A DNA stretch of 62,833 nt, filler included, from Hausera hauseri (lineage: Eukaryota), in assembly GCA_046269625.1 (NCBI GenBank). It is 10 parts of 10 records of this genome, joined end to end, with 100 filler letters (N's around TTAATTAATTAA, not from the genome) between each part and the next. Parts side by side here need not be neighbours in the genome. Positions count along the whole stretch, not along the records: positions 20,513 to 31,632 come from JBJURY010123317.1; positions 31,733 to 36,239 come from JBJURY010549452.1; 8 more parts are not named here. One strand, written 5' to 3'. Shown here in pieces: positions 16,459 to 55,289 of this stretch (its first letter is position 1; every line of letters begins with the position of its first letter). Below the pieces are notes generated by a model, which did no database searches, was not told where the DNA came from, and saw only the letters and a program-made list of their open reading frames with translations. The position numbers and the translations under genes are program-made.

Positions 16459-17391
16459 CTCTGTTGAGACTCTAAACAGCGTCAAAATGAAAGGCAACAC
16501 CAGTCTATACAGTATCAAAGTACTCATTAAAACTGCTCTGATTTACAGTGCGAACACAAAAACGACTCATTTGAAGAAAACCATCGGATACGATGCCACA
16601 GCGGCAAACCGTTAGGCATGGGTGGCAGAATCAAAACGGCTTACAATGTTGGATCGCTGTACTTTGACTTTTTCGATCAGCCGAAATACCTACTGCCCGG
16701 TGTTAAAGCCATGATTCGGTTCAAACGCAACGACAATATCTTTTGTTTGAAAACAGCAGTTGCAAATCTCAAATTCATACTGAAAATTACCAAGGCACGA
16801 TTATACGTACGTCGTATCAAGGTAGAACCATCTGTGCTCATGAGACATCGATTGGGCTTGGAAACACAAAATGTCTCTTACCAGTTACAACGCACAGAAC
16901 TCGTGTTTTACACTATATCCAAAGGTTCAACTACGTTTCACAAAGATGCACAGTTTGGCGACCTGCAATTGCCGAAATTTGTGCTTGTTACATTTCAAAC
17001 GACTGCTCAATAAACGGGCAGTTATACCACCGATTCGGAAACGTTTAGTCATAGCCATGTGAATTACATCTGCTTGCTTCGGAATGCGGATTTCTTTGCG
17101 ACCGGTGATTATGTTTGCACATATATGCAATCTATCGTGCGCAACATGGGTTTGCTGAACAAAAATGTTAAGAATAGCACACCGATGGATTTGTTCAAGT
17201 CCACCTATCTATTCTTCACCTTTCTCCTGGCTCCTGATTATGATGTTGAACAGACTCAACTACCTCAGCAGGGAAACCTGAAACTGGAGGTTCACTTTGC
17301 TAAAGCGTTGGAGCAATCTATCTTGATGTACATTTACGGTGTATTTGATGCCGAGGTTGAAATAACGAAAAACGGAATTGTTATTGTATAA
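16459..17391 (+). pseudogene. Polinton/adintovirus major capsid protein (double jelly-roll, PY/hexon), C-terminal part
   Basis: LYFDFFDQPKYLLPGVKAMIRFKRN...ARLYVRRIKVEPSV...QLPKFVLVTF...FFTFLLAPD...GNLKLEVHFAKAL; in-frame stop at 17011. Confidence 0.9.
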
Positions 17392-20512: not shown

Positions 20513-20601
20513 ATATTTCCCATTTCCAAATCGATATTTATTTCCAATAATTTGTTATCAAAATATAAAATTCAAAACAAATCCAAACTAAACACGCCAA
20601 A

Positions 20602-21308
20602 TGTTATATAATTGCGGTGACCCTTACTCAACTCCCACTATACAACAGTAATTTCACTTAAAGTTTCAAATCTTACCAGGTTCGGTCTATTCGTAATCGA
20701 ATAGACAGAATGTACCTTAACAATTTTAATATTGCTATGAAGGTAATTGATTGCCGTCCTGTGCCGATAGTTAGATTGTTCTCCCTTGTCTATGAAGTTT
20801 AAGTATCAATTTATTCTTAGTGACGTCAAATCACCTTTTAAGGGACGATGGAAATTATATGCAGATTAAAACAAAAAGGAGAAAACTTTACCGAGTACTT
20901 TAATTTTCACTACACGAATGCAATTTCTGATTATCAGTCGAATCAACAACACAAGGGAAAGTCAATCAGTAATTCAATTGTTTCAATGTTTGATGCACAA
21001 TCTCGCAAGTTCTTACGTTCTGATTTTCTCTCCAATCTTCTCTCTTTTTATATAGTTTGAATTTCATAATTAATTTATTTCACAACGATTTTTATTCAAT
21101 TCCTCCAGAATACTTTCTCAATAGAACTCGATTCTACACATAAAATAATTTATTTTCGGACTACAATTACATTTTATTGCTTCAGTGCAATTTCAATGAA
21201 CGATATAAATAATAAATGGTAATTTTGATTAAATATTTATATTACATATACACATCTAATGCCGTTATTCTTATACCATCCTTTATGTTATCGCCTCTAT
21301 TTACAACA
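20602..21308 (-). repeat. 3' LTR (707 bp, TGTT...AACA) of retroelement A
   Basis: Minus strand PPT AGGGAGGAGAAA (21309-21320) directly followed by TGTTGTAAAT...TATATAACA; TATA-like TATATAAAAA near 21050 and AATAAA near 20812. Confidence 0.8.
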
Positions 21309-23715
21309 TTTCTCCTCCCTGACCGGTATCCTCGGATGTGACCATTGCGCTAAGAGAGGTGCCGTGAGAACGAGGCGGACGTAATATTTCCATACGCCGT
21401 CTTAGGCTAGGCCCAGAACTAGTACTTGGCTGGTTTTCTCTAGGATTTATTTCTAGTTCATAACTATGGTACGGCTTTATTCTAACTATTCTAGTGTAGG
21501 TACCGTTTGAGTAATATTTTAAGTCGGCAGCCTCGGCTCTGCACACAGGACATGTGGTCTTTCCATTATCTAATGTCCATTTCTCTAAGCAATCTCTGCA
21601 ATATTTGTGCTAACAGTCTGGGTTATTTAATATTACGTAATCTTGTTTTAAATTTGCCTCGCATACTGGGCATTCATTCTCTTCTTTCTCCCAATTTTCG
21701 TCGTCTAAGTCGACTCTTAGCATAATTTTGATAGGTTTCACTATCAATCCTTCTTCGTCCTGATACAAATAAGCACATATTCTCTTCTGTTTCGGGTTTA
21801 TGGAACTCTTTTTGGGATCGCATCCTACGGTTATTAGCGTCCAATCGCTGATAGTGTTTCGATCTAAATCGGGAATTTCACCAGTCGATCGGTATTTTTG
21901 ATTTTGTTTCTTTAATAATAGCTTTACTGATATATCCACGGGAACTAAAATTTTGCCATTTCTTCTGGACTGGAATATCGGAGCAACGTATTTCCCGATT
22001 TTAGGATTCTCCCAGACATGAGTATTCTCATAAGCTTGTCTGCCGGGCATTGATTTGACAAAAAACATTGCCTCTTTTATCCTTTGTTTACTGTAATATT
22101 CTGTTGCTATTAACATCCTGGGGTGATCCGCCGTGGTGGCATAGTGTATATCTTCCGTAGAGTTCTTTTTTCTTAGGACGTTTATTTCTGTTATCTGTCG
22201 TTTCTGATTACTCGGTTTTCTTGTGGATTTCACAATATGGGCCTGCATGTCTGTTTTTGATGTTTCTTTTGCTGTTATTCTTGGTTTATCTGGTTGTGTT
22301 GATTTTGAATCTTTTCCGTCTGGTCTGTGTCCTTCTTTCGGTCCTTTTTCTCCTTCTTTACTTTTCTCCTTGAATAAGTAATCGAAAAAGGAGGTTTTCC
22401 TTTTAGTTGTTTTTCCGATTTCGACCTCTGAAATTCTATCTCTTTCTTCTACGTATTTCCGAGGAACTTCTGGTACTTTAAATAGATTATTATCTGTTGT
22501 AACGGCATAACTTGTACTGGGCTTTCCATCTGTACATAGTTTATTCTCCATTTTCTCTGTTTCAATCCTTGGATAGTTATTTGGTAATTCCACTTTGTTG
22601 TGGTCTCGACGCTTCTTGGTGGAGAGTATTGGCGGAAGTGTTTTCTATAACGTGTGCTGATTCCTTCAAGCTTGGGAAAATTTCGAAGGTTCTGTCCGGG
22701 GTTATTGGGAATCCATTCGTGTTCCCATTTTAATCCAGCATTTATGTCCCTTAGATATTGGGATCTTTGGCTAGCGGCCAGAAGTCTGCTGATTTTTATA
22801 TTTCTTCCAGTCATGGCTTCTACCATAAGTTTGAATCTGCCCTCCACAGTTGGTGGTAGATAACATTTCTTTTCTTTGATCTTGATCTCCATTTGTCTCA
22901 TAACAGTCGGATGGGTTTCTATCTTCCTCACTCCGTCTATGTGCGTTACCTGTAGGTTTAATTGCTCTATCATTCGTTCTACCTGATACCCCACTAAGAC
23001 GTATCCGTAGAGGTATTGTGCTACTTCCTGTTGCAACAACTTGAAATCCTTTCCATGATTTGTTCTTTTTTATCCCAGTAACTTCTGCATAAGTTTCTAG
23101 CACTTTCTTTCTCGGATTAATAATTTCCCAATAGACTTCGGCCCCGTTTTCTTCTCTGATGGATATTTCAGTCGGAATATAATTTCCCTCTTCTCCTTCT
23201 ACATAGTTTACTGCGACAATTCTCAGATTCCTGTCATTAGTTACCAATCTAAATGAATGTAGGTGTGCGTCCTGCTCTTCGGTGGGCCTTTGCCTAAACT
23301 CTAAGGACGGAAATAAAATGGGTATTGTCTCCTCTTCAGTTATTTCGACCATTTTTACAGGTAAGGCGGCTACACGAAACTCTAACTCGTAACTATGGAA
23401 ATTCCTGCTGTTAAATACAAACGTGCTAAATCGCCTTTGTCTTCCTTGGAAAGAGTCCCATTTTTGATTCTTCAGTCGATAGTAAATTTCCCCATCTGCC
23501 AAGTTTACATATATCTTCTGTTCCTTGTCCGTTTGGTGCTTGGTGATCTGCTTCAAAGGGTATGCTCTGGCGTCCTTATCCTCTCTCTAGGCATATAAAC
23601 GTATAGCTCTGGCTTCTTCGCTCGTTCCTTTCAAACTCTTTGGTATCTCGCCAACCTTTTAGTATTGAACGATGTTCTTTCCTTGCAATTCTGTATTGAT
23701 TTGCCTATAGATAGC
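21301..23715 (-). pseudogene. LTR-element accessory ORF (about 800 aa reconstructed): REXO4/ISG20-like DEDDh-fold domain, Lys/Thr-rich linker, C3HC4 RING finger
   Basis: Joins ORFs 22771-23556, 22449-23039, 21610-22593 and 21301-21546 through two frameshifts (about 23065 and 22600) and a TAG at 21610. Motifs: EISIREENGAEVYWEIINPRKKV...VTGIK/HGKDFKLLQQEVAQYLYGYVLVGY and CPVC-x15-C*HKYCRDC...CPVCR. Confidence 0.75.
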
Positions 23716-23727
23716 TTTTAAGTTTGT

Positions 23728-23916
23728 TTGGCTACTGCAGCAGAAAGGATAAATCCTGAAGACAGAAGACAAGCATACAACAAACCAATCAATGATATAA
23801 ATGATTGTGGAGATGGATTTATTGAATTCAAAACGTATGAAGAATTAAAATCAATAAAAGGTGCCATCCATAACGACACAATGACAGTCAGATGCCGCGT
23901 ATTGCCATGCAAATGA
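23728..23916 (+). pseudogene. MATH/TRAF domain C-terminal fragment
   Basis: AYNKPINDINDCGDGFIEFKTYEELKS...IHNDTMTVRCRV* matches the end of TRAF-type MATH domains; 5' part is absent and abuts retroelement A. Confidence 0.6.
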
Positions 23917-25959
23917 CGTCACATTTATTGAATGACAAATGGCAGAACAGAATTCATCAATTTATTTATTTGCTATGAGAAAACAAAATTTATTTCCAAT
24001 TGAATCATGCCATCATTTTCAGTGAAAATTAACAAATTTTATCAAATCAATTTACTAAACAAAAATTGCCAAATCCGACATATTCGATTATGAAAAAATG
24101 ATTTATTTTAAAAACAAAATTAGAAATGTTAGAATTTACAATTTCTCATGTTGAATTTGCATTAATTCGAATTGCTGACTCATTGGCCAATTAATCGTCA
24201 TGATGAGTCATTGATATTTACCTTATTAGATAATCATCGATGATTGGTTGGCTTTTGTAAAAATGAGATTTGCTTATATCTGGTTAGTTAGAATGTTACA
24301 TTAGAAGGAGCTGCCGACGGTAATTTGATGGAGTATCGCAGGAATGCCTGTTCCTTTTATAAAATGCAGTAAGAAGGAATTATAGATAACAGAAATGTAC
24401 TCTACGAAATGAGTCATGTACTCAATGATATGTTTGCGTTCAGAGGAAATTCGATTGTGAGATTGAAAAATAATTCAATTGAAATATTCTGACGGTAGAC
24501 AGGAAGTGGATTTTTATCGAAATATCGAACTGATTTCCGATTTTTATCAACTAGAAAAGAAACAATGCATAAATACACTCAACCTTTCATTTTATCATGT
24601 GCATGGGGAACATGACAATGACACACACACACACACACAGTCATTTTATAATTGAAATTTTCATAAACGAACTATATAGTTCAATAAAATTTATTTTACC
24701 ATCAAATATTTATTGCTAAACATCCTTTCGATGATTTATATTTTATCGATTATGACAAGGCTCCACAAGAATCGACACATCAAATTTAATTTGTTTCATC
24801 ATTTTACGGGTGATGTTGGACTGCAAATTTTACTAAAATACCAAAATTGTTATGTATGCCATATTTGTATGGGGTATAATGAAGAAGTACCGCGACGTAA
24901 ATATTGATAAAATTTTACAGAAAGAAAAAGTAAACAATGTATCATAAACAACTAATGACTTTATACAAAACCTTAATAACAATGTTCATTCAGCATTTAT
25001 TATCAAATAAAATAATTCCATGCAAACGACCCAACGTTCATTTGTAACTCATTTTGACATTTTACTGTTCACTTTTTGCAACTTACTGAACAAATATTTG
25101 CCAAACATTTTCTCTTTTAGTAATCTTTTTCATGGAATATATCAGAGTCCGTGGAGATCCAGTCGACACAAACATCGTTCCGAACAATATAGACCTTCGA
25201 TCCTTTAATTTCTGATATGATCTTCCGATTGAATTTGTTATACTTAGACAATGATAACTGTGTACTATTAGTCGGTATCATTTAGACATTCTTTCCAACT
25301 TTCATTCATTTCGGCTTCAAATTTCTGTCGCAACATATTTCTCCATGTTCCTTGTCGTTTATGATAGTAAACCATCATCGAGTGAGGTTTTTTTGTCTGA
25401 TTTTAGGCAATTCGTCTTGACTACCTTTGACATCGTGTAACATCTTTTATGTCTGGAGAATCTGATTTGTTCATAGAGCAGTCTTTGTTCAATGATGTAC
25501 CATTGTGTATACATCTGTTTACATCAGAGAATTTAACGTCACCAACATATGACAATCTTGATTTTCTATGATTCGTTAATACTGTTGCTTGAAATGTGAT
25601 ATTGGTGAATGACCCTCGATAGAGTAGACAGTATGAATTGTAGTGCCGTGATCACGGATACAACTCGTGCCCTCACTAAAATGGCAACAGCTGCATTCAT
25701 ATTTAGTCGTACGATAGACGAACTCATAATTGGTCTGGCTCGATGTCCAGACGAAAGGCTGAAATCCTCGCTGTTTTCTCCATGATCAAAAATAACTTTA
25801 CAAATTTCAATCGTACAATGGTTGATGTAATCTACCTCATACAAGAATTATAATTTACTCCAATTAACCGCAACTTCAAGTCGTTTTCCGAAATTAGAAA
25901 TTCACCTCCATGTAATTCGAAGGAACTCTCAAGTGATGACCATTGTACTACCATTCTGT

Positions 25960-26300
25960 CGATTAATCCCAGCAGTCATCATAAGCCATTGTTTTATGTG
26001 GAATTTCGGTTTGTATTTCAAAAAAGGCTTTGCGGAGTATTGCTGCACAACCAATTGAATGTTATTGGGAACATCTCAACTATTCGTGATGTTTAATTTC
26101 TCTTCTTCTGGATTTGACCCCAGGTTTTAAAATCCAGACATTCTTAGAATCGTCCATATCAAATTCAAGATAGCTCGACCATTTTTGCTTTGTGCTATCA
26201 TTAGCGACATCCCCAATTCTGTAATTTTCGTAAATAGCTGTTAGGTATTAAGCCAAGAATCTTTTCAAGTTTCTATCACAATGAAAGTGAATTAATTGCA
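25960..26300 (-). pseudogene. TTLL3/TTLL8 tubulin glycylase fragment, intronless and decayed
   Basis: MDDSKNVWILKPGVKSRRREIK...LVVQQYSAKPFLKYKPKFHIKQWLMMT parallels NIWIVKPGAKSRGRGI...VVQKYIERPLL...KFDIRQWFLVT. Confidence 0.75.
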
Positions 26301-26494
26301 GTCAAAATCCTCGCGGTTTTTTACATCTGAAATGACTTTACAGTAAGAAATGGTCATATTTAGAAACTTATGTTTAATACTGTCTTCATTCTTTTTGGAC
26401 CACAGCATTTGATTCTTGGTAGGACATTCCTTTCCTCTTCAGAATTATCAACACCTCCGAAATATCGTAATATCTATTGTATCCTTAATGAAAC

Positions 26495-26680
26495 CTATTC
26501 GTAACGATAGTGGTAAAAGGAGAGTTTGGGGCCGGTTCCTAAAATTAAAAAAATTTTTTCATTCGTTCGCCACCCACCACCACTCATGAAATTTTTTTAA
26601 AAATTTGAAAAACCGACCCCAAACCTTCCTCTTACAACTACTCTTATCACTTCAATTATAAAATATACAATAAAAAGTGG
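26495..26680 (-). repeat. Dispersed repeat (copy 2 of the 1618-1792 family)
   Basis: Reverse complement aligns to 1618-1792 by eye. Confidence 0.75.
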
Positions 26681-27540
26681 CATCAAATAATTCAGATTGT
26701 AAATTTTGTGAAGCAGGTCGAATTATAATTAAATCAGATAATAAATACATTTGGAGTGAATGCACTATTTGTAAATGTTGTATATTATTAAATTACCTTA
26801 TAAGTGACTGAAAAAAATAATTCAAATTATTAAAAAACATTTAACTTAACTTTTGGCTCAGTTCCAATTATCTGATCAAATTATGAACACGATGTTTGGA
26901 ATCAGCATACTCGAATTGATTATAGAGCAAAAAATCAGGTCAAAATTCGAATATAAATTTCTGATCAAATTTTCTTTAAAGGGTGGACCATTGGCTAAAA
27001 AAACATTTGTTTTCAATTTTAACCCACTTACTTTTAATCATTTAATTTGATATATGGGTTATATTATTATAATCAATAATCTCTATAATATACCAAAATC
27101 AGATTATAATATTTAAAATTATATAGTAAAAACCATGTTAAAAATTGAGGAAAACTCAATGAATTGTAAAATTACTGACTATTTATCAATAGATAATTTT
27201 GAGTTTAACATTAAATATTAGAAAAATTAAATATATAGACCAGTCTGAGGACCACGAGTGAGATGTGGTTAAAGGTGTGGTAGTGAAAGGGTGTTGAAAG
27301 GTGTGGTCTATATAAACATAATTTGTCTAACCAACTTGTGTTACCTATATAAACATGTTTAACAATATAAACATGTTTATCAAGTGAAACTTGTGTGACC
27401 TATATAAACAGCTCACACAATAACCATAGTTGTTTACTATAGATACTGTGTGGTCTACTTACACAACTTTATATTTGTATAAAACTATATCATATTGAAA
27501 AAGTTACAAACAGTGGAATAAAATATTGTGCAATATATCA

Positions 27541-28160
27541 TGATGTAATTTTTTTAGTAACATTTAAAGTAATTTTATTATAGAGTAATATTTTATGTAA
27601 GAAAAATGAAAAATTTTAGAAGGCATGTAGCTCAGTGGTTTTAACTCTAGTCCGCTAAGAGTGTTACTCGGGTTCTAATCACATAAACTTATATTTTTCC
27701 TTCTTTTCCTCTTAAAATAATCATACAAAACTATATATATTCTGAATCCACTCATCGAGTTGAGTTGAATGGGCACGATATTTTTGTGATACCTCTATTG
27801 CTTCAAAAGTTATAAGGGTTCAAAGTCCCACTGCTCTTCAGCTGATGTATTTTTTAGTAACTGCTTTCTAATAATGATTAATAAATTTAACAACAATTAA
27901 AGTAATTTTATTATAGAAGCACATTAAATTTAACAAAAATGAAAAATATTAGGAGGCATGTATATCAGTTGTTATAATCAAATTTTGCTAAAAATGCTGA
28001 TAGGGTTCAATTCCTACCTCGGTGTGTATTTTTTCCCTTTTGATAATCACATAAAACCACATATATTCTGAATCCTCTCAACGAGACAAACTTAATGAGT
28101 GCATTAGTTTCATGATATCTCTCATGGATCAAAAGTTATAAAGGGTCAAAGGTCAAAATT
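27541..28160 (+). repeat. Two diverged tandem units (about 300 bp), each containing a tRNA-like pol III A/B-box segment
   Basis: Units start tgatgta-tttttagtaac (27541, 27843). GGCATGTAGCTCAGTGG...GGGTTCTAATC and GGCATGTATATCAGTTG...GGGTTCAATTCC; shared tail tatattctgaatcc...caaaagttata. Confidence 0.6.
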
Positions 28161-29914
28161 ACACAATTTACACAACTATATCACTGAAAATTTAAAAGCT
28201 ACAATAAAGATTTGTACATATTTGGAAAACTTATTAAAAGGGCTATCAGAATAAAATTGTTTTAATACTGTGCTACCAATTGTGCAAAGTGTGCAAGGCT
28301 TTGAAGGTGCACAATTTAAAGCAGTCACAAATTTGTTAATTTTATCGGATTTTGATAATCTGCAGCTCATTCGAAATCTCTTCATAATTTCTACTTAAAT
28401 ATCTCAATTGAATAAAAAATATCTAGTGTTTCACTTAAATTAATTCTCTAAAAAATGAAAAAACAAAGTGATATTCAAGAATCAACTTGTAATATAGCAA
28501 AATATTTACCAAAATTTCTGAAAATTAAATATGGTGAATTACACTTTCCATCATATAATTTTACGGGTCAAGTGGACTTATGTGTGTTTTGAAAAGAAAC
28601 ATGCAAGTGTTATTAAATTCCTTTATAAAAAATTGGTTATAGAAAATGTATAAAATGTAATAATTTATATGAATTGAATGAGAATAATTTTAAAATTATT
28701 CTGAAAATATATTTTTCTCATACATGCAAAAATGTTTATTACATGAAGGTAAGGTCAAAGAAGAAAATTGTAAAATCAATAGAAATTTAAGTGGTCATAA
28801 ATGGAACGGGTAAAAGCTAATATTATGTAAGTATGTAAAAATATGTAGGTGCGAATGTATATATATATATATATATATGTAGTGTATAAAGTTTTTACTT
28901 TTGACTATTAATTGTGGGATGGAGTTTGCATGAGCGAGACACGTGTCTGAAGATGTAAACATGCAAAAAAAGAACGTATTATGATTGACATAAATAAACA
29001 GCCCTGATCGACTTTCGGAAAACTGACGGGATGATGGCTGAATTGAACCGTGCCTTATCAAAAATAAAAGTCAAATAATGTCCAGGTTACGTCAGACGTC
29101 GACAGTCAGATGATAATATGGAGAATCGGCGGATTGCAAGAAAGTACCATCGAAGAAAAAGAAGAATATAACCAACTAGATTCAATCGATGGCCACTCAG
29201 ACTATGGCACCAGTTAAGACATCAACGAATGAATGTAACGACAATGAGGATGACAGTGATGAGTCTTTCACATTAGAAAATTTCCTTGATGAACCTCATT
29301 AATGGAATGAGACTGTTAATCACGATCATTCATATTACCAGGTGTTTGTCATAGGAAATAATATCACACACAAGATGAATATGAGCAAGTCTGAATTACA
29401 GCATAACAAACTGTGTGACAAATGATGGAACGATACAACAATTGGTACATAGAATAAATTGTCGATCCAACACCGGGTGTCTGTTAAATCGCTAAGTTCG
29501 ACAAACCATTCATGGTGGGTGTAGACGTAGAGGATTGCGTTATCTACTAATAGCATTCAAAAGGTAACCACCAAGCAGGATGATAGAAACAACAGCAGAG
29601 AAATTGTCTGGTTTGGGAAATAAGTTGAGTATTACGTCAATTGTATATATCATTATGAAATTCACAGATGGTCGATCGGATCAGGATTATGCAATAAAAT
29701 TACTGTGCAGTTGTATACGGATTTTCATTATTTTTATTTAGTTCCATTCATTTGTCATTTAATTATCATTACTGATAAATCTCAGCAGCAATACAAAGAA
29801 AAAATAAATGCAAATACAATGCTGCTATAGTATCGCATGGGATCGATAAAATAAATAAGATTTTGATTTAAAAATATAAAAAGAAATTTTGAATTTAAAA
29901 ACAAAAGAAACTTT

Positions 29915-30892
29915 ATGAAAAATATCAGTACATCCAATCCTTTTCCAGCGAATACATTTAGATTTCAGACAACCATAAATAGAATACCCCTTGATAATTC
30001 CATATTAAGATCTTTACAATGGAAATTCATGATTAACGCAGAACGATTAATATATAATGTTGATAAAGGTATTATACTGGGAGTCGAATCACCAGAAGAA
30101 CCTGAGAATTTTAGAAACGTCATGTATGAATGTAATAAAGGATGTCAAAAAATTATATCCAACGAAGTTGTATCGGGAATGAACGACCAAAAGCAAATGT
30201 TTGGTACCATAACAAAATTAATGATATCTGGACTTGTTCGTAGTAGTGATCAATTGTCAACCGCAGACAAAACAATGAGAGATGATAAGACATATATAAT
30301 GAATGGGCAGATAGATTCAATAGGAATTGCCCAATGGATGTTATTATATTTAATTTATATTGCTCAAATTAGTGGACATCTGAAATTAATGTCGATTGTT
30401 TTTACTGACGTTGCTGCCTTGAAGTCAGATGAAATTAAGCAAAATTTAGAGGGTAAAGTCACTTTAGTAAAATTGTTGCAGACAGAGTCGAGTGATTCAC
30501 TGAATGCATTTTCTGATGTTGAAGAATATTATGATGTTGATTTCAGTCATCATAAATCGGGAAATACGTCTGTCAATGGGGGGACTTCTACCTCGGATGA
30601 TTTGGAAACAGAAACGACATCTTGGGCTTCACACGCTGAAATTTATAATGAACGTAATTATAATTTGTTTGACCACCAGTCATGTTCTAATGGCAACGAC
30701 AACAAGTATCAATTTAGTAAAAATTATCAGCCGACCTTAGAGTTTTATATAGTACGAAAGGAAGAAGTGAATCAATCATTTTTCGTCAGTAAAAGAAGTC
30801 TGAAAATTGGTTCGGCAAATTTGATTCAAAACAATCCTCGATCCCATGCTAATTTCAATATTCGAGTTGTAAAACCATTTTCATTTAGTTAA
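29915..30892 (+). CDS. Kinesin-6 (KIF20/MKLP-like) motor-domain derivative, intronless, with degenerate nucleotide motifs
   Basis: QKQMF...DKTYIMNG...GI; long loop-6 insertion; WASHAEIYNERNYNLFD (WVSFFEIYNEYIYDLF); NNPRSHANFNIRVVK (SSRSHSIFTIK). Confidence 0.7.
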   Translation: MKNISTSNPFPANTFRFQTTINRIPLDNSILRSLQWKFMINAERLIYNVDKGIILGVESPEEPENFRNVMYECNKGCQKIISNEVVSGMNDQKQMFGTITKLMISGLVRSSDQLSTADKTMRDDKTYIMNGQIDSIGIAQWMLLYLIYIAQISGHLKLMSIVFTDVAALKSDEIKQNLEGKVTLVKLLQTESSDSLNAFSDVEEYYDVDFSHHKSGNTSVNGGTSTSDDLETETTSWASHAEIYNERNYNLFDHQSCSNGNDNKYQFSKNYQPTLEFYIVRKEEVNQSFFVSKRSLKIGSANLIQNNPRSHANFNIRVVKPFSFS

Positions 30893-31098
30893 CGTTCGAC
30901 TCGAGATCCCAAGATAAATCTCTGTAAATCCAGGAAAATTTCATACTTATGTAAGCTATGGCGGAACTTGTTTAAGGTATTTGAATGTCGTTTAAATATT
31001 ATTGTTGCCGGTTTTTGTTATTCCTTTAGTTTGATGGCTGTCGATCAGGGTTGCGATGATAGAATGACTGACAAATTTCGCGTGCTTGTTTGGATACT

Positions 31099-31300
31099 AG
31101 TAGTAGGATAGGAGCACATGAAGCCAACCCCCCCCCGGGAAGAAAAATTGATGCGTTTAAACAAAAGTAAATTTCACGAATTGATGAACCGGTACTTATA
31201 TGTTATCCCCCGATTGGGTGAATCCGTGACTATATAGTATTGTGAATATATAGTATTGGTTGAATGTGTACTTATCCTCCGATTGGGTGAATCCGAAATT
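31099..31300 (+). mobile_element. Putative Polinton terminus (TIR)
   Basis: AGTAGTAGGATAGGAGCACATGAAGCCAACCCCCCCCCGGGAAGAAAAATT is homologous to the reverse complement of 47560-47611; short direct repeats CCGATTGGGTGAATCCG follow. Confidence 0.6.
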
Positions 31301-31372
31301 AGTACTAATAATTTTTGTTTTAATTTCGATTGTCGGATATAAATATAGCTGTGTAAATAAGATTAATGTACA

Positions 31373-31632
31373 ATGTTTCAGACAATTGACTCAAAAATAT
31401 TGTGTAATTTCAAAAAGCGAATGACTGCTGCTTCAGTGTTGATACAGTTGAAAGAAGAAGAAATTCACAGTGAATTGAAAGAAGTGCAAAACTTATTCGC
31501 TACAAATGACGATCTTGAGTATGTTGCACCAGAGATATTGTTGGAAGTGATACGAAACAGATTGATTAATGTCAGTCCAATGGTTGGTAAAATAATCAGA
31601 ATGACAGAAGAATTGCAAAACAGTCAGAAGGA
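31373..31632 (+). CDS. Hypothetical helical protein just inside the putative Polinton terminus, truncated by the contig end
   Basis: ATG-initiated open frame to the contig end; no motif recognised. Confidence 0.4.
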
Positions 31633-31732
31633 NNNNNNNNNNNNNNNNNNNNNNNNNNNNNNNNNNNNNNNNNNNNTTAATTAATTAANNNNNNNNNNNN
31701 NNNNNNNNNNNNNNNNNNNNNNNNNNNNNNNN
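31633..31732. other. Artificial contig spacer
   Basis: N44-TTAATTAATTAA-N44. Confidence 0.99.
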
Positions 31733-32779
31733 TTTATATACCAAATGTAATACACTTTGTTTTAATGCATCAAATAAATTAAATGCACTTGGGTGCCAAA
31801 TAGGTTTTCATACAATCGACTAAAGTCATCAGATTCTTCAAATAATGCATGTTTGACCGAATATTATCGAATTTTTCAATGTTTTATTCATTTCGAGATA
31901 CTTGTAAATACTTTGCACACCCAATTTTGGTCTACAAATGTTTTCGGACATGGGAAATCCGATGGTAATGTTTGAATATTTCAAATCGATCGAAAAATCG
32001 GATTTTATGTAAGCCTCTTCGCATATCTCTCATCATATTCGGATTCTCCATATATGGGTTTCTATCTCTCTACGCTTTTAGATTTTTCGATTTTTGCTTC
32101 TGTTCGAATAGAAAATCAATTATTGGAAAAGTTCGATTTGTATTTGAGTTTTCGAATATCTGATGTCAAAATCGGATACAGCACATGTTAGTTTTTATGT
32201 GTGTACGCTTTTATATTTTTCGATTTCTACTTGCTTGTGTGCTAAAATCAACTTTATAGGTTTTATCCGAAAATAGTTATTATTGATTAAAGCGCACTTA
32301 CACATGTGCGACACATTTGAAAAGTGCTACATAGATGCACTAAGACATGGGGAATCGACTGTCTCTCTCAGATTTTTCAAAAAGTTTATGGGTGTCAAGA
32401 TAATCGATACTATTCGGTGAAAATCGATAATTATTCCAGTTGTGCACCGAATTTCGGAAATCTGAGATGGAAGACCCGGGATACAATGTGGAACTTCCTA
32501 TCTGTTTTCGTTTAAACATTTGTTGAATTTTGACTACTTAGGACCTAAAAAGACTACGGGAAGTCTGCACCGGTTGCACTTTGGATCGACATTATTCGAA
32601 ATCGACTCGATCGATTTAAATTCTAATTGCACATTCACATAGTGCATTGTATTTCCAATCGATTGCACCCGGTGCCATGTGCTAATCATCAATATTGGCA
32701 ATATCGGAAATCCGATATTATTGATTTTTGCACACTTGCACATATGATGCGCACCTGTGATTACGAACAACCTGAGTCA

Positions 32780-34440
32780 ATGTCTTCAATGGACTATGAT
32801 GAAGTTGAATCACAATCACCATCTGACGAACGTACAGCTGCAGTGCAAAGGAAAGGAAGACTGAGAGGGAGGGAACGTGCAACTGGAACAGGAAAGAAGA
32901 CTGATGCAAGAATTGTGTGGGATGTTGATTCACTAGATGTCACAGATTCAGATGTGAACTTCGATGGTAGCGATAAGTTGACAGACGAGATAATAGCTTT
33001 TCAGAATCCTTATCAGTTCTTTGAATATCTATGGACAGAGAAACTGAACAGCTTGAATTCTGATGAATCCATTCTGTGTGGAACTCAGGAGCATCTGGAC
33101 AGACCATCAGTTTACACATTCAGTGACATTCGTCAGTTCATTTCGATTCTGATGTATGATAGTTCAATAATATCTGTTCTGTGTACACGTGTGCTGTGGA
33201 ACAGAAACATAGTAGGTGACAAGGTTTCCAATATCATGTCCATCAACAAATTTGAGGAACTGAAATCTAATATTCATTTCTAATATAATAATTCAGCACA
33301 TAATATCAACTCACCTGACTATGATAAGCTGTTCAAGATCAGACCACTTCTGAATAATCTGCTTGAACGTACAAGTCTGGTGCCATTTGAAGAGCGCTTG
33401 AGTATTGATGAACAGATAATCCTCTACAAGAGAAAATTTTCAATCAAGACATATATGAGAATGAAGCCACATAAGTGGGACATAAATAACTGGGTTCTGG
33501 CCAGTGCAATTGGTTTTGTGTACAAATTTAGAATTTACACTGGAACATCGCTTCCTGTGGATGAGGCAAGTGGTAAACTGGAATGTGGTGCCAGCGGAAA
33601 TGTCGTTGTAAAGTTGCTAAGAGATGTACCACGGAGTGTAGGTTATACAGTGTACTTTGATAACTACTTCGGCTAAGTGAAACTGCTGATTTGGTTGGCA
33701 AAGGAAGGCTTTCTTTGCGTAGCAACAGTTTGCACCAACCGAGTGAAGGAAACTAATGCGCGAACTGATTCAGAAGTGACACGTTTGGGCACAGGCGGCA
33801 TGCATGAAGACATTGCTGCAGTGAACGATATCCCCATAACACTCATCAGGTGGTATAATAACAAGGCTGTTTATTTCCTGTCCATATACATTGGAGCTAA
33901 GCCAGTGGGGACTATCAAGCGCTGGGTCAAGACTTCCAAGGCATATAAGGACATCTCATGCCCTGCAATCGTGGCTGTATACAATCGCTTCACGGGAGTG
34001 TGGACGCAAATGGTATTTCAGGGTATTCACATTCATGATAAATATGTCAGTCGTGAATACATGGTTTTTCTACCACAATCGAGCCAAAGACTCAAGGACA
34101 CAGCGGAGGAATGACAGATTACGCACTGCTCCATTTCAGATTGGAATTGGACAGTACCCTGTCTCTGTTGAGTGTACACCCAGGAGCACGCAAGCGCGGT
34201 CGCAGATAATTGATAGATGAACAGATCCAGAGTCGTGCACAACTCCCACACGTTCCTCATCCGCCAACAAAGGACGTGCGCCTAGATGGAGTGGAACATT
34301 TGAATGTAGTCAACGCGATCAGATCAAAGTATGGTCAATGCTAAAAGACAGGATGCAAATCACGTACTATGTACATATGCTAAAGTGTAATATGTCGATG
34401 TACAGCCAAGACATGTTTTGTTTATTATCACTGCTAAGCT
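32780..34440 (+). mobile_element. piggyBac transposase pseudogene (PGBD2/3-like)
   Basis: PYQFF...MSINKFEELKSNIHF...DKLFKIRP...SIDEQII...KPHKW...VYFDNYF...WYNNKAV...CPAIVAVYNR; Cys-rich C-terminus; stops and frameshifts. Confidence 0.93.
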
Positions 34441-34511
34441 CATGTGTAAATAAGCTTTCAGAGAAGAGCCAGAACAGCATTTTACTTGTATTCATTTCGT
34501 AGATATTGATA

Positions 34512-34896
34512 AGTAAGTACTACTATAATGATAAGTTTAGAGGTTCCCTTCTATATTTGTGTTTGGTTCAACCAAAGAATTTTTGTCTGATTTAGAACTA
34601 CTCCTTGCTGAATCAGTGCGTGAAGTTGCAATATTAGCCTTAACTCTACTACGAGTGTTATACGCTCGTGTGTTTCCTCATTCGGGGCACCAGTGATAAG
34701 TTTATAGGTTAAGGTTTATTGGTCTTACGACCTTAAACTTATACTCTTTACTTAAAAGCTTGAGTTCTCTCCTTGTCTCAAGCTTGATTTACTTTATAGA
34801 AGTAATCAGCAACCTGTGGGCTTGCTGATGTCTAGGTTTACTTTATTTAATTGGGCTTAGTGTGTGAGCTCCGTCAGGAGGTACACTGACGTTACT
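34512..34896 (-). repeat. Candidate 3' LTR (385 bp, AGTAA...TTACT) of retroelement B
   Basis: Minus strand AAGGGGG directly followed by AGTAACG; ends ...CTTACT; AGT-type termini as in the gypsy/17.6 lineage; internal AATAAA near 34715. Confidence 0.6.
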
Positions 34897-35399
34897 CCCC
34901 CTTACTTAATAGATTTTAACAACCGTCCGGAAGGGACGGTATACCAAATAGGGCCCTGTAAATTGAAATTACTTTTCCTACTAAGATATAACCTTAATTA
35001 CTTAAAATTTAAGTTTACAATATAAACAACAAAAGAAATAATCAATCGACAATATATACTTTAATTCTTTAAAATAGTACGATCAAGAAAAGATATACAA
35101 GAAAACAATAAAAATTATACTCACATCCATTCATGTTGATCATAGCAATGTAATAGTCTTTCAACAGCAATTACAGCAATTATAATTATTATGGTATGAA
35201 TGAAGATATACAGCAGTATATATACTGTCAGAAGGTATACAAAGAAAACAAAATAAATAAAATTCAATTATTCTAACTGAAAAATAAATAAAATTCAATT
35301 AAATGTTTGATCAATCGATCAAAGTTTATTTAATTTCAATTTCACAGAACTTCAAGCAATTAGTAAGTCTATTTGTCTTTCTTCAGAATTTATTTACCT

Positions 35400-36239
35400 T
35401 CAATTTAGGCCGGTATTTCGAACATCTCCCTCCTCAGACGATGCTGTCCTCAGCATCAAGGGATAGACTTCAATAACTCCATTTGAATCTTGGTAGTTAA
35501 CCGATTTGATCTGGAGACTTCTTCCTTTCTTTTTAATTGTCTTTCTTAAGGTAATTGTTTCTGATCTGGGGATTTTCTTTTTATTCTTTGATTTTTTTGT
35601 TAAATCAACGAAGATGGATTCCGAGGAACTAGCTAGCACTAAGGGTTTTAAATCTATATGACATTCTTTTATTGTCGGAATTGAGACTGGCATCACTTGA
35701 TCATTAGACATTGACTGGTTTGGTATTGATTGATTAATTTTAGGCTGGGGTAATATTTGTTGGGTATTTAAACATACGGATGCCATCTGAGTAGGCGCTA
35801 TCTGGGTAAGTGCCTGTTGAGTTAATTCTGGATCTTGAATTTTCATAGGGGTGATATCATTCTCAAGGTATTCATTTTTATATTCCGAAATAGTATTGTA
35901 AATCTTCGAAATAGTCAAGGCTTTATCTTTCGTCTTTTGTGGATAGACGCCATCATTATATTTCATAATAAGCTGTTTTGCAGTGTATTCTTGTAAGGGA
36001 TTGATTTCTTTGTGTTGTCATAATTCTCTGATACCAAGAAAATAATTATAGTCATATCTGAGGGTGGTTGTAAACATACGATATACATCAAGACCGACTA
36101 CTACTTTGCCAAATATTGCCTTCCTGAGATGGGGTTCCTCTTCATAAGAGTCTCTTTGACCAAGAATATCAGCTTCTTTTAGACCAGTAATATGGCTATT
36201 ATAATTATGTATTTTTTCTCTTGGGGTTAAAATTTCATC
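35400..36239 (-). pseudogene. LTR-element accessory ORF: REXO4/ISG20-like DEDDh-fold domain plus Gln/Pro- and Lys-rich tail (5'-truncated)
   Basis: From the contig end DEILTPREKIHNYNSHITGLKEADI...LRKAIFGKVVVGLDVYRM...GIREL, then frameshift to YTAKQLIMKY...KTKDKALTISKIY; ends in PPT-like GAGGAGGGAGA-TGT. Confidence 0.7.
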
Positions 36240-36339: not shown

Positions 36340-37320
36340 GATATTGTTTATTCAAGCCTTTGCCACTTGAACGTACAATTTCTTGAATACGACATACATC
36401 GTGTTTCTCGGGCAGTACCTGCAGTTCCTGTTCGTAGAATTTACCACGTATTTCCTCACCGTTTTCATCCTTTAAAACATATATGACAGGTGTTTGTTTT
36501 GTGTTGATTGCCGAAATGCGAAAAACTTCGTCGCTCCAGTTATGATTGAAATTCTTAATGAATGGCGTCGTACTTATTTTCGAAATACGTACATATGCAC
36601 CGATTTTATATTTTGGGCGTTTAATTTCCTGTCGTGTTCGGTTTTGATAAAGCCACATGTTCAAATCATCGATTGCGTCAACCGGCCGTAATCCATTGAT
36701 TCCACAATGTGTCGAATGATTGTAAGCATGAACAATATCCGGAAGTACATCTACCCGCATTTGTTGCCTTTCTTCCTAAAGAATTTGTTTAGGCGACCGC
36801 GCAATGTTCGAATTCAATCGTTTAGCGAGTGCCGCCTTGTATTGAGAAAACACCAAGTAGTGGTTTACGCTGAACCGTTTCAAGACCGCTACAACGTGGG
36901 CGTTGTAGTATTACTTACCCAAATCCGTTTGAAAGTGCTTCGGCTGTTGTTATTGTTGTTGTACCAGTGTCTCAACAGCGTCAGAGATCTCCTTACCGAT
37001 TTAGATTTCATGACAATTGCACGTGCAAAAGGACTGAGCACATCAATACATGTCAGTACGTACCGATACCATTGTTCATGCTGGTGTATGGAATCATTTC
37101 CATCAGATCCATTTGCCATACATTATTTACACTGGCGGCACGGTATACACGAGTTGGGAACCGCCTTCTTATCGGTTTGTTAGGCAGTATGCTAACTGTT
37201 TCCCCCTCCAACGTTGGGTTCGTCGCTGAGTCTGTTTGAGAGTTTTTGACAGTTTGTCAACGGCAGTACCCTTGACGAGATAACGTGGATCGAACCAAAT
37301 GTCACCCAGCGTTGTTGTTG
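36340..37320 (-). pseudogene. Polinton retroviral-like integrase with C-terminal chromo-like domain
   Basis: KPIRRRFP...WQMDL...YVLTCIDVLS...IVHAYNHSTH..I...P...KIGAYVRISK...NWSDEVFRI...YVLKDENGEEIRGKFYEQELQ. Confidence 0.93.
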
Positions 37321-40030: not shown

Positions 40031-40503
40031 ATGCTAATGAATGATGTAAAGATTATCTTAACAGACGAAAATGCCTTTGTGCCGAAACGTGTTACACAAA
40101 CAGCGCAGGCTATGGTGTGTTTTCCCATGTCAATACGGCAATTTCGAACAGAACAATTAAATGCATAACTACTGGGATTCGATTGGCTATTCCACCCGGT
40201 TACTACGGCCAACTTTTATCAAAAAGCAGACTGGCAAAACTCGGACTGACGGTTGTGGGTGGCGGCGTCATTGACTTGGACTTTCGTGGTGAAATTAAAT
40301 TGTTGCTGGAAAATCAATCCGGGGAGCCGTATGCTTTTTCGAAAGGCAGTGTAATGGCACAAATCGTTTTTTTTCGATATGAAGAGGCAGAATTCAGTGT
40401 AATGTCACCGGTACAATGGGGATTGTTTTGTGTCAATTAAGCAACACGAATTGAACGCAAAGCATTTGGCTTTGGTAATATAGACAAAACCACCTATGTT
40501 TAA
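40031..40503 (+). pseudogene. dUTPase (trimeric type), Polinton-borne
   Basis: TGIRLAIPPGYYGQLLSKSRLA...GGVIDLDFRGEIKLLLEN...MAQIVF; frameshifted N-terminus and degenerate motif V. Confidence 0.9.
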
Positions 40504-44893: not shown

Positions 44894-45880
44894 TGGTGAA
44901 TCGGACCCCGATCCTTCTTATGTGGAAAACTCCACAAATACCAGATCTGGTCGTCATCCTGCCGACTCCACACCAGCTATATCTCCAAATCATCCTTGCA
45001 CAGATTTTTTCTTGATAAAACCAATTCGAGCCGCACTTGGCTACAGTTCCATTACAATGGCTTAAAGTCAATCATATCAGACTCTTTTGCGGGCAAACAG
45101 TTTGCTGGTATTACTTCCAGCTAACATCAACAATCTTGCTGATATACTCACTTCTTCAACTCCATATTATATGCTTTATGAATTAGTTCTGCATATCACC
45201 GACCCCTCCGTTAACAGCATAATTCAAAAATACTTGAATGAGCATGCCATTGGGAATCAAAAACCATCGGACTTCCTGAAAACTGTAATCTCTCAATTGA
45301 GTTCCTTAGGCGTTACTTCTATAAACAATACCGATCTTCTTCGTCGGTATTTTCTTTCATGTTTGCCTACTTCCATCAGGTTGCTGCTCACTGTAGTAAA
45401 TGATTCAACAGCCCTTGAAAAGCTCGCCTTATTGGCAGACAAAAGCTTCTACATTTTTCAATCTAATAGTCAACAGCCAGTAGCTGTAGCAACCGCTCAC
45501 ACACCTTTACACACCGACAACACCTCATTCTCAAAACAATTGCAATTGATGCAGCTACAGTTTGACAAGTTACAGCAGTCAATTCTAGGCATTAATACCC
45601 AACTAAATAATCTTAATAGGCCTCGACGAAGCGAAACCAAATCTCTAAGGGAGAGAAGCATTTTTAGACACTGCTCGATCCATTTCACCTGGCGGACGCA
45701 TGACTTGTTTTTATCACACGCGATTTTGAAGGGATGCTAGGAAGTGTTTTTTGGATTGTCGGTTCTATAGCGAACGGTGCGCTGTGGACAACTCCATCTG
45801 TGTCTATCACAATAAGTTTCAGTCACAGGCTAGGTCGTGCGTGCCAGGATGTAAACATTATAAAAACAACTCTAGTTTCT
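44894..45880 (+). mobile_element. Ty3/Gypsy gag remnant with candidate PBS
   Basis: TGGTGAATCGGACCCCGA PBS-like site; IGNQKPSDFL...FLSCLPTSIRLLL...LEKLALLADK; two Cys/His knuckles CFYHTRF.RDARKC and CVYHNKFQSQARSC. Confidence 0.85.
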
Positions 45881-46049
45881 CTCCGTCTTCTTTGCCTCGC
45901 ACTCACCATTCCTCTTCTTTCTCCCAACAAGTCTCAAAAAACCAATAATGCCACCAGATGCCACGGAACACTCTGGTATAGACAACATAGTTCAATCTTC
46001 TGGCCGTTTCAACACCACCTCATCAGTTTTCCTGCTGAAAGCTGATCTG

Positions 46050-47377
46050 CTATTTGGAGACATCACATAGACTTTCTTGTCGATTTAGGAACTGCCCTAA
46101 TTCGGTTGAAAATGTCATCTTCAATTTGGAGTCTTCCTCTAATTCGACTTGGTTGTATGTATTCTCTAGGTCGATTGACGTGAAAAACTTTGTCCCCTAT
46201 AACCTTTCCAATATCTCTACCACGTTAGGCATGGGGAAGGCCTGCCGTTCCGTTATAAGATTCAGCTGCCTGAAGTCCAGGCATATTCTGACATCGTTCT
46301 TATCTTTCTTCCATACGCGTAATATTGGTGTATTCCATGCTGAGTTATATGGCTTGATAATGTCGTTTTCCCACAGGTTTCGGATGGTATCCTCGATCTT
46401 GTTTTCTAGGTTTACTGGTAGCCTATGAGACTTGATATTAATCGGCGCTCCTGTCGTGTCTATTCGATGTTTGATGAGAGATATGCACCCTATGTCCCAC
46501 TTTTCGGCCATGAATATTTCTGGGTATTTCTGTATAATGTTGAGTAGCTCTTTGTCGTCGCTCACCTAAAGAACTTCCTTCGCCCTGTTTGCTTGTTCTT
46601 GGTTAGTCACCTTACGGCCGAACTTGGCTTCCAGGTTGCATATATCTTGCTGTAATATCTCCGCTTCCATGCGTTTCCATCCTAGTTCTATTTCGAATGG
46701 CTTTTGCAGGTCCACACAACTTATTATTTCTGGGCGTAATTTTGATACTATTAAAAATATCACCCGTCTTCTTAAACCCTTGATTTCTACGTCTTCTCTC
46801 AGTGTTCCCAGGCAATCTAAAGGGCTATTGTTCGCACATCCTAGTGTGCAAGTTTATCCACGATCTTCTTGCTTCTGACGTTTACCCTGGCTCCCGTATC
46901 TAATAGGCAATCTTCCCATCTATCTTGTATCTTGAATTTGATTCCTGGTCGTTCATTAAACTTCCTGTATGATATCTCTTCGACATACAATTCGTGTAGC
47001 GTAAAGATCTGCGTATCATTTCTACTTTCCACCATTCCGTTGGAGGATACTTCCTGGAAATTTTCCGTTTTCATAAATTTTCGTACATTTTCCTGTGTCC
47101 TTTCATCCATCGCTATGTCTCCCTGTTCCCTTCTTCATCATCCGTCTATATTGTTTGATATACTACTAATATTATACATAACAATATTTTGGGAGCCTAA
47201 ATCTTTTGCTCCACTTTTATCAAGGCTGCGCCTTTTGGGGCAACTGACACCTGATCAGATTTTGTTTCTTCTTCCTCTACGTTTGCGACCCCCCCCCCAT
47301 TTTTTGTTCACATTATCCCCGTACTTTCTTTCGACGTTGTATATATTCCATCCAGGTTCCTTTTCCCCTCCAGCCTG
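46050..47377 (-). mobile_element. Ty3/Gypsy pol remnant (protease plus RT N-terminus)
   Basis: CLLDTGARVNV; IKHRIDT...SAWNTPILRVWKKDKNDVRICLDFRQLNLITERQAFPMPN. Confidence 0.93.
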
Positions 47378-47477
47378 NNNNNNNNNNNNNNNNNNNNNNN
47401 NNNNNNNNNNNNNNNNNNNNNTTAATTAATTAANNNNNNNNNNNNNNNNNNNNNNNNNNNNNNNNNNNNNNNNNNNN
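47378..47477. other. Artificial contig spacer
   Basis: N44-TTAATTAATTAA-N44. Confidence 0.99.
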
Positions 47478-54563: not shown

Positions 54564-54693
54564 TTATAATTAATACATTTTTATATGTTTTTAGTTTAAC
54601 ATTTACTTTAGTTTGTTTATCATTCAGAAATATTCGCAATATCTCATGTATTGCGTCTTCCTCATACATGAGGGTGGACAATGACACAAGCAA

Positions 54694-55125
54694 ATGGCCA
54701 ATTATTATTCAGTGACCAAGGACACGTACCTGTGTCCCTTGGGTTTTATTCAAAACACGTGCCCGTATGCCGACTTCTATAAGATGCGCAAGCATCATCT
54801 CGGTCCGTTCACGCGGTCCAAGAAGATGATGCATGTGCATTGCCCCACATACCCACGTTACTGTACCTGTAAGGCGCATGACGTTGATGGTTGCCATAGT
54901 GCACTAAAGCAATACTATGGTAAAACAACAACAACAAGCACAACGATGCACGGTAAACGGGCCTATGTATGTCCGGGTTGTTCTATAGTTGAAACGCAAG
55001 TCAACTATGAACAATTCTACAACAACAATATGGACCACTTGAACCAGTTTCAGAGGTCCAAAAAGGAAGTATTAATGGACGCAGAAAGAAGCAGCAGCAG
55101 CTGCAGCAGGAAACGTCAAGCATAA
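54694..55125 (+). CDS. Cys/His-rich hypothetical protein upstream of the Polinton polymerase
   Basis: 143-aa ATG ORF with Cys/His clusters; base composition resembles the downstream pPolB. Confidence 0.45.
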   Translation: MANYYSVTKDTYLCPLGFIQNTCPYADFYKMRKHHLGPFTRSKKMMHVHCPTYPRYCTCKAHDVDGCHSALKQYYGKTTTTSTTMHGKRAYVCPGCSIVETQVNYEQFYNNNMDHLNQFQRSKKEVLMDAERSSSSCSRKRQA

Positions 55126-55289
55126 GCAGGCCTTGACTAATACTTTCAAAACGACAAAAGTCATAAACAGCAACAGCAGCAGCAGCAGCAGCAGGAACGT
55201 GAACCGCCCATTACTGTCGAGTACGACATAAACAGATCGGACCTGGACGTGAAGGTGGACATGTCGGCGAAAACAGCAACGCAACTAAA

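Follow-up and report, generated by a model that had tools for sequence, protein, structure and literature searches.

The window analysed here is a stretch of 62,833 nucleotides from Hausera hauseri (GenBank assembly GCA_046269625.1). It consists of ten short contigs joined by N spacers, is mostly AT-rich and laden with repeats, resembles animal DNA, and yields Pfam matches to piggyBac, polinton-type polymerase, dUTPase and leucine-rich repeat pieces. Two elements form the subject of this report, namely element A, on the contig at 20513-31632, and element B, at the end of the contig at 31733-36239. Both lie on the minus strand, to which all features of A and B given below belong. A sequence-only reading had described them as two different long terminal repeat (LTR) retroelements carrying a homologous, catalytically altered exonuclease of the REXO4/ISG20 type in the env position, and the peptides that it quoted for A and B are all present on that strand.

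The accessory open reading frame (ORF) of element A occupies 21301-23718, is decayed and 5′-truncated, and was delimited by tblastn with P0003, an intact relative. Between 23718 and 21304, A matches P0003 in three colinear blocks (identities of 37, 32 and 43%; E from 1e-74 to 3e-67). It is therefore a decayed copy of a gene of ~815 codons, and has lost roughly 18 codons from the start of the conserved region. The encoded order is an N-terminal domain, a degenerate DEDDh exonuclease domain (22713-23223, placed by alignment) in which the acidic residues and the His are replaced, a low-complexity linker, a conserved domain of ~140 residues (21700-22125, 47% identical to P0003), a C3HC4 RING finger (21538-21672) and a tail. 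Stops interrupt the frame at 23659-23661, 23587-23589 and 21610-21612, the last being a single premature stop within the RING. Moreover, there are frameshifts near 23070, where the exonuclease-like core is split, and between about 22570 and 22345. Contigs of four of the five listed sequencing runs were placed on 20513-25500 only; runs X3-X5 contributed small shares and do not enter the evidence. In run X1, most other copies differ from A at the two 5′-proximal stops, and those two breaks are therefore particular to this copy. A word-based protein search with the first ORF of A, made among longer proteins, gave no match.

Relatives were sought by phmmer with the first 378 codons of A against 1.84 billion representative proteins (E<=0.001). 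Five matches were returned, of which three are real (P0003, P0004 and P0007); the other two, the repeat protein P0005 and the immunoglobulin-like P0006, were dropped as spurious. P0003 is an unbroken ORF of 870 residues with the architecture of A, a singleton known from one contig of 16.2 kb, and P0004 comes from a contig of 12.4 kb. In P0007 the same dead exonuclease domain is joined to part of an acetyl-CoA carboxylase, probably because the gene model runs across an inserted element. Word-based protein searches found only P0003 itself when P0003 was the query, and nothing among proteins of up to 492 residues when the query was the domain profile described below. Members of the family are 24-54% alike; they have lost the same catalytic positions and have kept the structural motifs and all RING ligands, a degree of protein conservation that would suggest long-term constraint on the gene family.

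In element B the 3′ part of an ORF lies at 35400-36239, the 5′ part falling past the contig end. It holds the second half of the dead DEDDh domain, from 36239, where the contig end cuts it, to about 35898, with a single stop at 36018-36020, followed by a low-complexity tail with a basic stretch. No RING was found in B by Pfam or by reading the sequence. Aligned directly by BLASTP, A and B show weak similarity (75 columns, E=0.003), and a profile built from A alone scores B at 4.8 bits, which 4 of 1000 shuffles also matched. Intermediate members strengthen the link. B matches P0003 at E=1e-8 and P0007 at E=2e-8, and a profile built from A, P0003 and P0004 gives it 31.2 bits, a value reached by none of 1000 shuffles (best shuffle 7.8 bits; best unrelated sequence among the 670 ORFs of the stretch 5.1 bits). 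Homology of the two ORFs is marginal when they are aligned directly and clear via relatives, and the observation of a shared domain in two elements is confirmed. When searched alone, B matched no solved DEDDh enzyme and no Pfam family at E<=10; since it does match the family of A, it is nearer to that family than to known cellular enzymes.

The identity of the domain was assessed with a profile, A5, of six rows taken from A, B, P0003, P0004 and P0007. Against the PDB it gave six matches at E<=10, and five of these are DEDDh enzymes: ISG20L2 (3.1e-10), SDN1 (2.9e-8), ISG20 (1.8e-6), the PolC exonuclease (6.4e-5) and DnaQ (3.7e-4). The sixth is a porin (E 0.16). NCBIfam returned 11 weak matches, all to one of the six rows (the P0003 stretch), and 10 of the 11 are named DnaQ, PolC, DinG or 3′-5′ exonuclease. 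In the Atlas, RNase_T clusters came first at 0.92, a lead only, since 4-10% of shuffled proteins also score 0.9 or more. Searched singly by phmmer, the read-throughs of A and B found nothing in the PDB at E<=10. On these profile matches the domain is assigned as a homologue of the REXO4/ISG20 branch of DEDDh exonucleases (ISG20, ISG20L2 and SDN1), as had been proposed.

A closer inspection of the active site bears out the replacement of its residues that had been noted. At ExoI (23223-23197 in A), the alignment shows Asp changed to Asn and Glu lost in A, P0003 and P0004, whilst P0007 keeps the Asp only and the corresponding part of B lies past the contig end. The ungapped HMMER register at ExoI is off by two residues, and D-x-E is restored in neither register. 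At ExoII (23000-22968 in A), Met replaces the Asp in A, B and P0003, and Lys does so in P0007. The catalytic His and Asp of ExoIII (22784-22740 in A) are both gone from A and P0003 when these are aligned to ISG20L2; for B and P0007 the same loss was read solely from a hand alignment. As P0003 is intact and nevertheless has its catalytic residues replaced, the loss is a family trait and more than decay. Some polar residues are retained in A, P0003 and P0004, namely an Asn at the site of the ExoI Asp, a Glu three residues on, and a second-strand Glu that P0007 also keeps; an RPTEE motif lies upstream in A, P0003 and P0004. No conserved His/Cys set stands in place of the lost residues in the six rows of A5, and Pfam Maelstrom matched neither the pieces of A and B nor P0003.

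The C-terminal RING of A, which is what makes the A-type protein most unusual, had been overlooked in the sequence-only reading. Pfam identifies it as zf-RING_2 (E=1.2e-9) and zf-C3HC4 (E=2.9e-8); eight of eight metal ligands are present in A, the finger is intact in P0003, and the helix Trp and the Arg after the last Cys are both there. The ~140-residue domain preceding it has no useful match (Atlas blank; best PDB E 0.42). The possibility that it is a second copy of the exonuclease was rejected, as hhalign gave a probability of 0.3% and neither database search supported it. The N-terminal domain of P0003 likewise had no match in domain searches. No integrase is in frame in P0003 or P0004, and the ORF is therefore not an extension of pol.

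Both ORFs run into a polypurine tract (PPT) followed by TGT, as had been noted. In A, a high-copy 3′ motif (21306-21345) overlaps the last codons of the ORF and contains the PPT (21320-21309) and TGT (21308-21306); a putative 3′ LTR at 20513-21308 is suggested by these two features, but is uncertain, and neither its far end nor a primer-binding site following a CA end was found. In B, a scan and DNA folding place a hairpin with an AGGA loop, a PPT (35435-35425) and TGT (35424-35422) within 35422-35457. A putative LTR of 731 bp with TG...CA ends was read at 34694-35424; the alternative is a 205-bp LTR, AGT...ACT, at 34896-34692, after a second short purine run. One base past the end of the putative LTR lies a sequence resembling a primer-binding site (PBS; 34676-34692). 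A pattern derived from this site itself had one match in the scan (0.03 expected). We take the site to resemble that for elongator tRNA-Met, although a check of the literature left the tRNA unconfirmed. The LTR-like stretch and the PBS-like site of B had been overlooked in the sequence-only reading. That the LTR is preceded by a PPT and followed by a PBS suggests that either copies stand in tandem or the assembly ran through a collapsed LTR. Past the PBS-like site, at 34500-34692 (minus strand), is a short frame with a YNTRSR motif, which might open a gag-like region, either in a tandem copy or in element B itself.

A scan of both strands of the stretch, by a rule chosen after the ends of A and B had been seen, found four purine tracts before TGT or AGT; only two precede TGT, and these overlap the final codons of the ORFs of A and B. 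The PPT of B is one base shorter than that of A, and patterns of the end motif therefore matched A only. The last six residues of P0003 equal those of A after an unrelated tail, as would be expected if a PPT/LTR edge constrains them, and this suggests that P0003 ends at the same kind of junction. The DNA downstream of A shows no similarity to that downstream of B.

The ORF of A is repeated, and its 3′ motif is very common. Run X1, from which all depth figures derive, placed 2777 contigs on 20513-25500, most of them 80-95% alike. Summed depths, which are not copy numbers, were 50-58 in the flank, 379-2264 in bins across the ORF and 37,672 at 21327, in the motif preceding the PPT. Past the TGT, they fell to 175-1283 in four bins from 20513 to 21180 (175 at 21014-21180). 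The motif of ~45 bp before the PPT (21305-21350) stands at several hundred times the flank depth in X1, and contigs of X1 and X2 diverge upstream of it. Many other element families therefore seem to share the pre-PPT 3′ end of A. A separate repeat (23720-24130) starts exactly where A is truncated.

Exuperantia is a degenerate DEDD-fold RNA-binding protein. Maelstrom and EXD1 are named as precedents for degenerate DEDD folds (PMC5408684), and have lost the DEDD residues in a retained fold (PMC2628886, PMC5408684), as the present family would have done. All three proteins are, however, host genes of other branches without a RING, and the A/B family is without an EHHCHC-like set. The closest sequence relatives of the domain are the cellular REXO4, ISG20, ISG20L2 and SDN1, a likely source of the capture, from which the family differs in its replaced catalytic residues, its own motifs (PRxK, GIREL-like) and its carriage on repeats.

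The idea that a DEDD exonuclease is an undescribed cargo does not survive comparison with bdelloid rotifers, whose LTR elements Juno and Vesta encode DEDDy exonuclease ORF3s with the invariant residues intact (DEED), as is also reported for Athena/Terminon (PMC5408684). The likeness would lie in a DnaQ-like 3′-5′ exonuclease fold that LTR elements carry in a 3′ accessory ORF of its own, with roles in RNA 3′-end handling or silencing that are likewise only proposed (PMC5408684). The bdelloid proteins (PMC5408684), however, are of the RNase D/DEDDy type and intact, whereas the A/B family is of the DEDDh type with residues lost; moreover, the A type adds a RING and two unassigned domains, and its position after pol is one that we infer. 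A test for the bdelloid type gave significant A5 matches to DEDDh enzymes, with residues lost, which excludes the family from the intact DEDDy class. Enzymatic ORF3s after pol have precedent (PMC5408684), DnaQ-like domains are listed among known LTR accessory domains (PMC6338049), and Dada DNA transposons carry intact DEDDy domains (PMC3706591). The giant gypsy elements Burro/GYPSM1 of planarians contain ubiquitin-related domains including a RING-type motif, but these sit in a gag-pol polyprotein of ~4,900 residues, and no exonuclease domain was seen in the portion of that report available (PMC6431247). VANC of VANDAL transposons resembles the role proposed below as an accessory protein serving its own family, but belongs to plant DNA transposons and acts on DNA methylation, as shown experimentally; homology is not expected (PMC6719617). 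In the accessible part of the same 2019 source, transposon-encoded counter-defence proteins were known from plants only, and no factor encoded by a transposable element was known to act against the piRNA (Piwi-interacting RNA) pathway (PMC6719617). The literature searched, which was partial and excluded Repbase and supplements, yielded no LTR element with an ORF for a dead DEDDh domain or a DEDDh-RING fusion. On sequence comparison, what appears new is thus the dead DEDDh domain and its fusion to a RING, exonuclease cargo in LTR elements being already known.

Elsewhere in the window, a decayed piggyBac-type transposase (32627-34400, plus strand; Pfam DDE_Tnp_1_7, best E=1.2e-18) faces element B, and an ORF of 341 codons without a Pfam match lies on the contig of A (29867-30889, plus strand). 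Polinton-like pieces occur at 54685-57865, 16531-17388, 36340-37300 and 40045-40437, with Pfam matches to DNA polymerase B (E=1.4e-7) and dUTPase (E=7.9e-18) and with capsid-like and integrase-like ORFs judged by eye. At 44900-47378, a gag-like ORF (plus strand) and a reverse-transcriptase-like ORF (minus strand) of other LTR elements were recognised by eye; they had no relevant Pfam match and no visible tie to A or B. The contig at 12181-16358 has identical 77-nt ends, likely an assembler overlap, inside an apparent Tc1-like transposase remnant. Between these ends lies an ORF of 310 codons that contains three repeats of 123 nt and has no Pfam match. A PBS-like match in this contig was rejected, as it sits in that remnant.

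Taken together, we favour, at a probability of roughly 55%, the reading in which A and B are damaged members of a single gene family, a catalytically dead DEDDh accessory gene of LTR retrotransposons that binds RNA and, in the A type, ubiquitinates. The carriers are very probably LTR retrotransposons, and the ORF probably lies after pol, the alternative being a non-autonomous element. The end motifs would make the superfamily gypsy-like or BEL. In the proposed mechanism, the retained groove would hold RNA 3′ ends or short duplexes without cutting them, most simply the transcript of the element itself. Bound RNA would be shielded from host exonucleases, and the element transcript protected or packaged. 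Going by DEDDh biology, we give such end binding and shielding a slightly better than even chance. The RING of the A type would recruit an E2 and tag with ubiquitin those host proteins that meet the bound RNA, whilst the B type would keep the RNA-binding module only. From RING biology in general, ligase activity of the A type stands at about even odds; that its targets are silencing or RNA-decay factors is rather doubtful. The full extension, in which an animal LTR lineage encodes an RNA-guided ubiquitin ligase destroying host silencing or RNA-decay proteins at element RNA, is unlikely; were it true, the protein would be of a sort for which the 2019 source knew no example directed at the piRNA pathway (PMC6719617).

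Several observations weigh against this reading. B is without a RING, so ubiquitination cannot be a function common to the family. No single member or read-through matched Pfam RNase_T. Both AlphaFold models were poor except for the RING (mean pLDDT, the predicted local distance difference test, 37). Foldseek found no match at E<=0.001 with the full-length model; with the domain model (also pLDDT 37) it found three at E<=0.001, all DEDDh chains, at TM-scores under 0.2, and the fold assignment therefore rests on sequence. Among 40 listed differences between A and other copies, with 769 further ones, 33 were scored after exclusion of six outside the ORF and one in the terminal motif; 12 of these 33 are synonymous against an expectation of 27-28% (p=0.18), and the differences look neutral. 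Six-frame translations of 23590-31632, which cover 8 kb upstream of A, showed neither a gag nor a pol family, no paired LTRs occur in the stretch, where both copies are without their 5′ part, and scans of viral, metagenome and prokaryote genome contigs gave no locus with context. The env position originally claimed is therefore one that we infer. Lastly, the low depth past the TGT of A counts against a shared LTR, or else the LTRs differ by more than 20%.

The missing pol could mean that the ORF is no ORF3 after pol, and that non-autonomous LTR elements carry it as their single gene or that it encodes a structural component of particles. It would fit that the 3′ motif is on far more contigs than the ORF and is unlike upstream, as in derivative families. 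However, the truncation of A falls inside the ORF itself, where another repeat adjoins at about 23720, and the lack of pol there says nothing either way; in B the contig breaks off within the ORF, and the contigs of P0003 and P0004 are long enough to fit whole elements. We regard this explanation as quite unlikely. The depth drop and the lack of pol could also be taken to mean that the carrier is no LTR retrotransposon, and the solitary occurrence of P0003 that it is a domesticated host gene. Both seem very unlikely: PPT and TGT are found at the ends of both ORFs, with TG...CA and the PBS-like site at B, conservation ending at TGT is also compatible with many LTR families sharing a PPT region, and P0003 is called as one unspliced ORF that ends as A does.

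As for function, the retained Asn, Glu and Glu and the RPTEE motif would be compatible with a domain whose active site has switched, as has been proposed for Maelstrom (PMC2628886), and which still acts as a nuclease, trimming element or host RNA. The lack of a conserved His/Cys replacement set and of a Pfam Maelstrom match, and P0007, which keeps the ExoI Asp without the Asn...Glu pattern, make this improbable. At the other extreme, the ORFs could be passive cargo, captured host REXO4-like and RING pieces that decay without function; both copies are broken, and the neutral differences would agree. This is highly improbable, however: P0003 is unbroken and similar to A over all domains (32-43% identity), and the same catalytic positions are lost in such diverged members whilst structural motifs and RING ligands are kept.

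We therefore return to a dead DEDDh accessory gene of LTR retrotransposons as the preferred reading. On this reading, LTR elements would have captured a DEDD exonuclease a second time and independently, from a subfamily other than that of the rotifers, and the captured DEDDh domain would have been kept after the loss of catalysis and joined to a RING. P0003 provides an intact natural protein on which RNA binding and the nuclease and ubiquitin-ligase activities could be tested directly. If the RNA-guided ligase were true, it would be a family-specific counter-defence protein.

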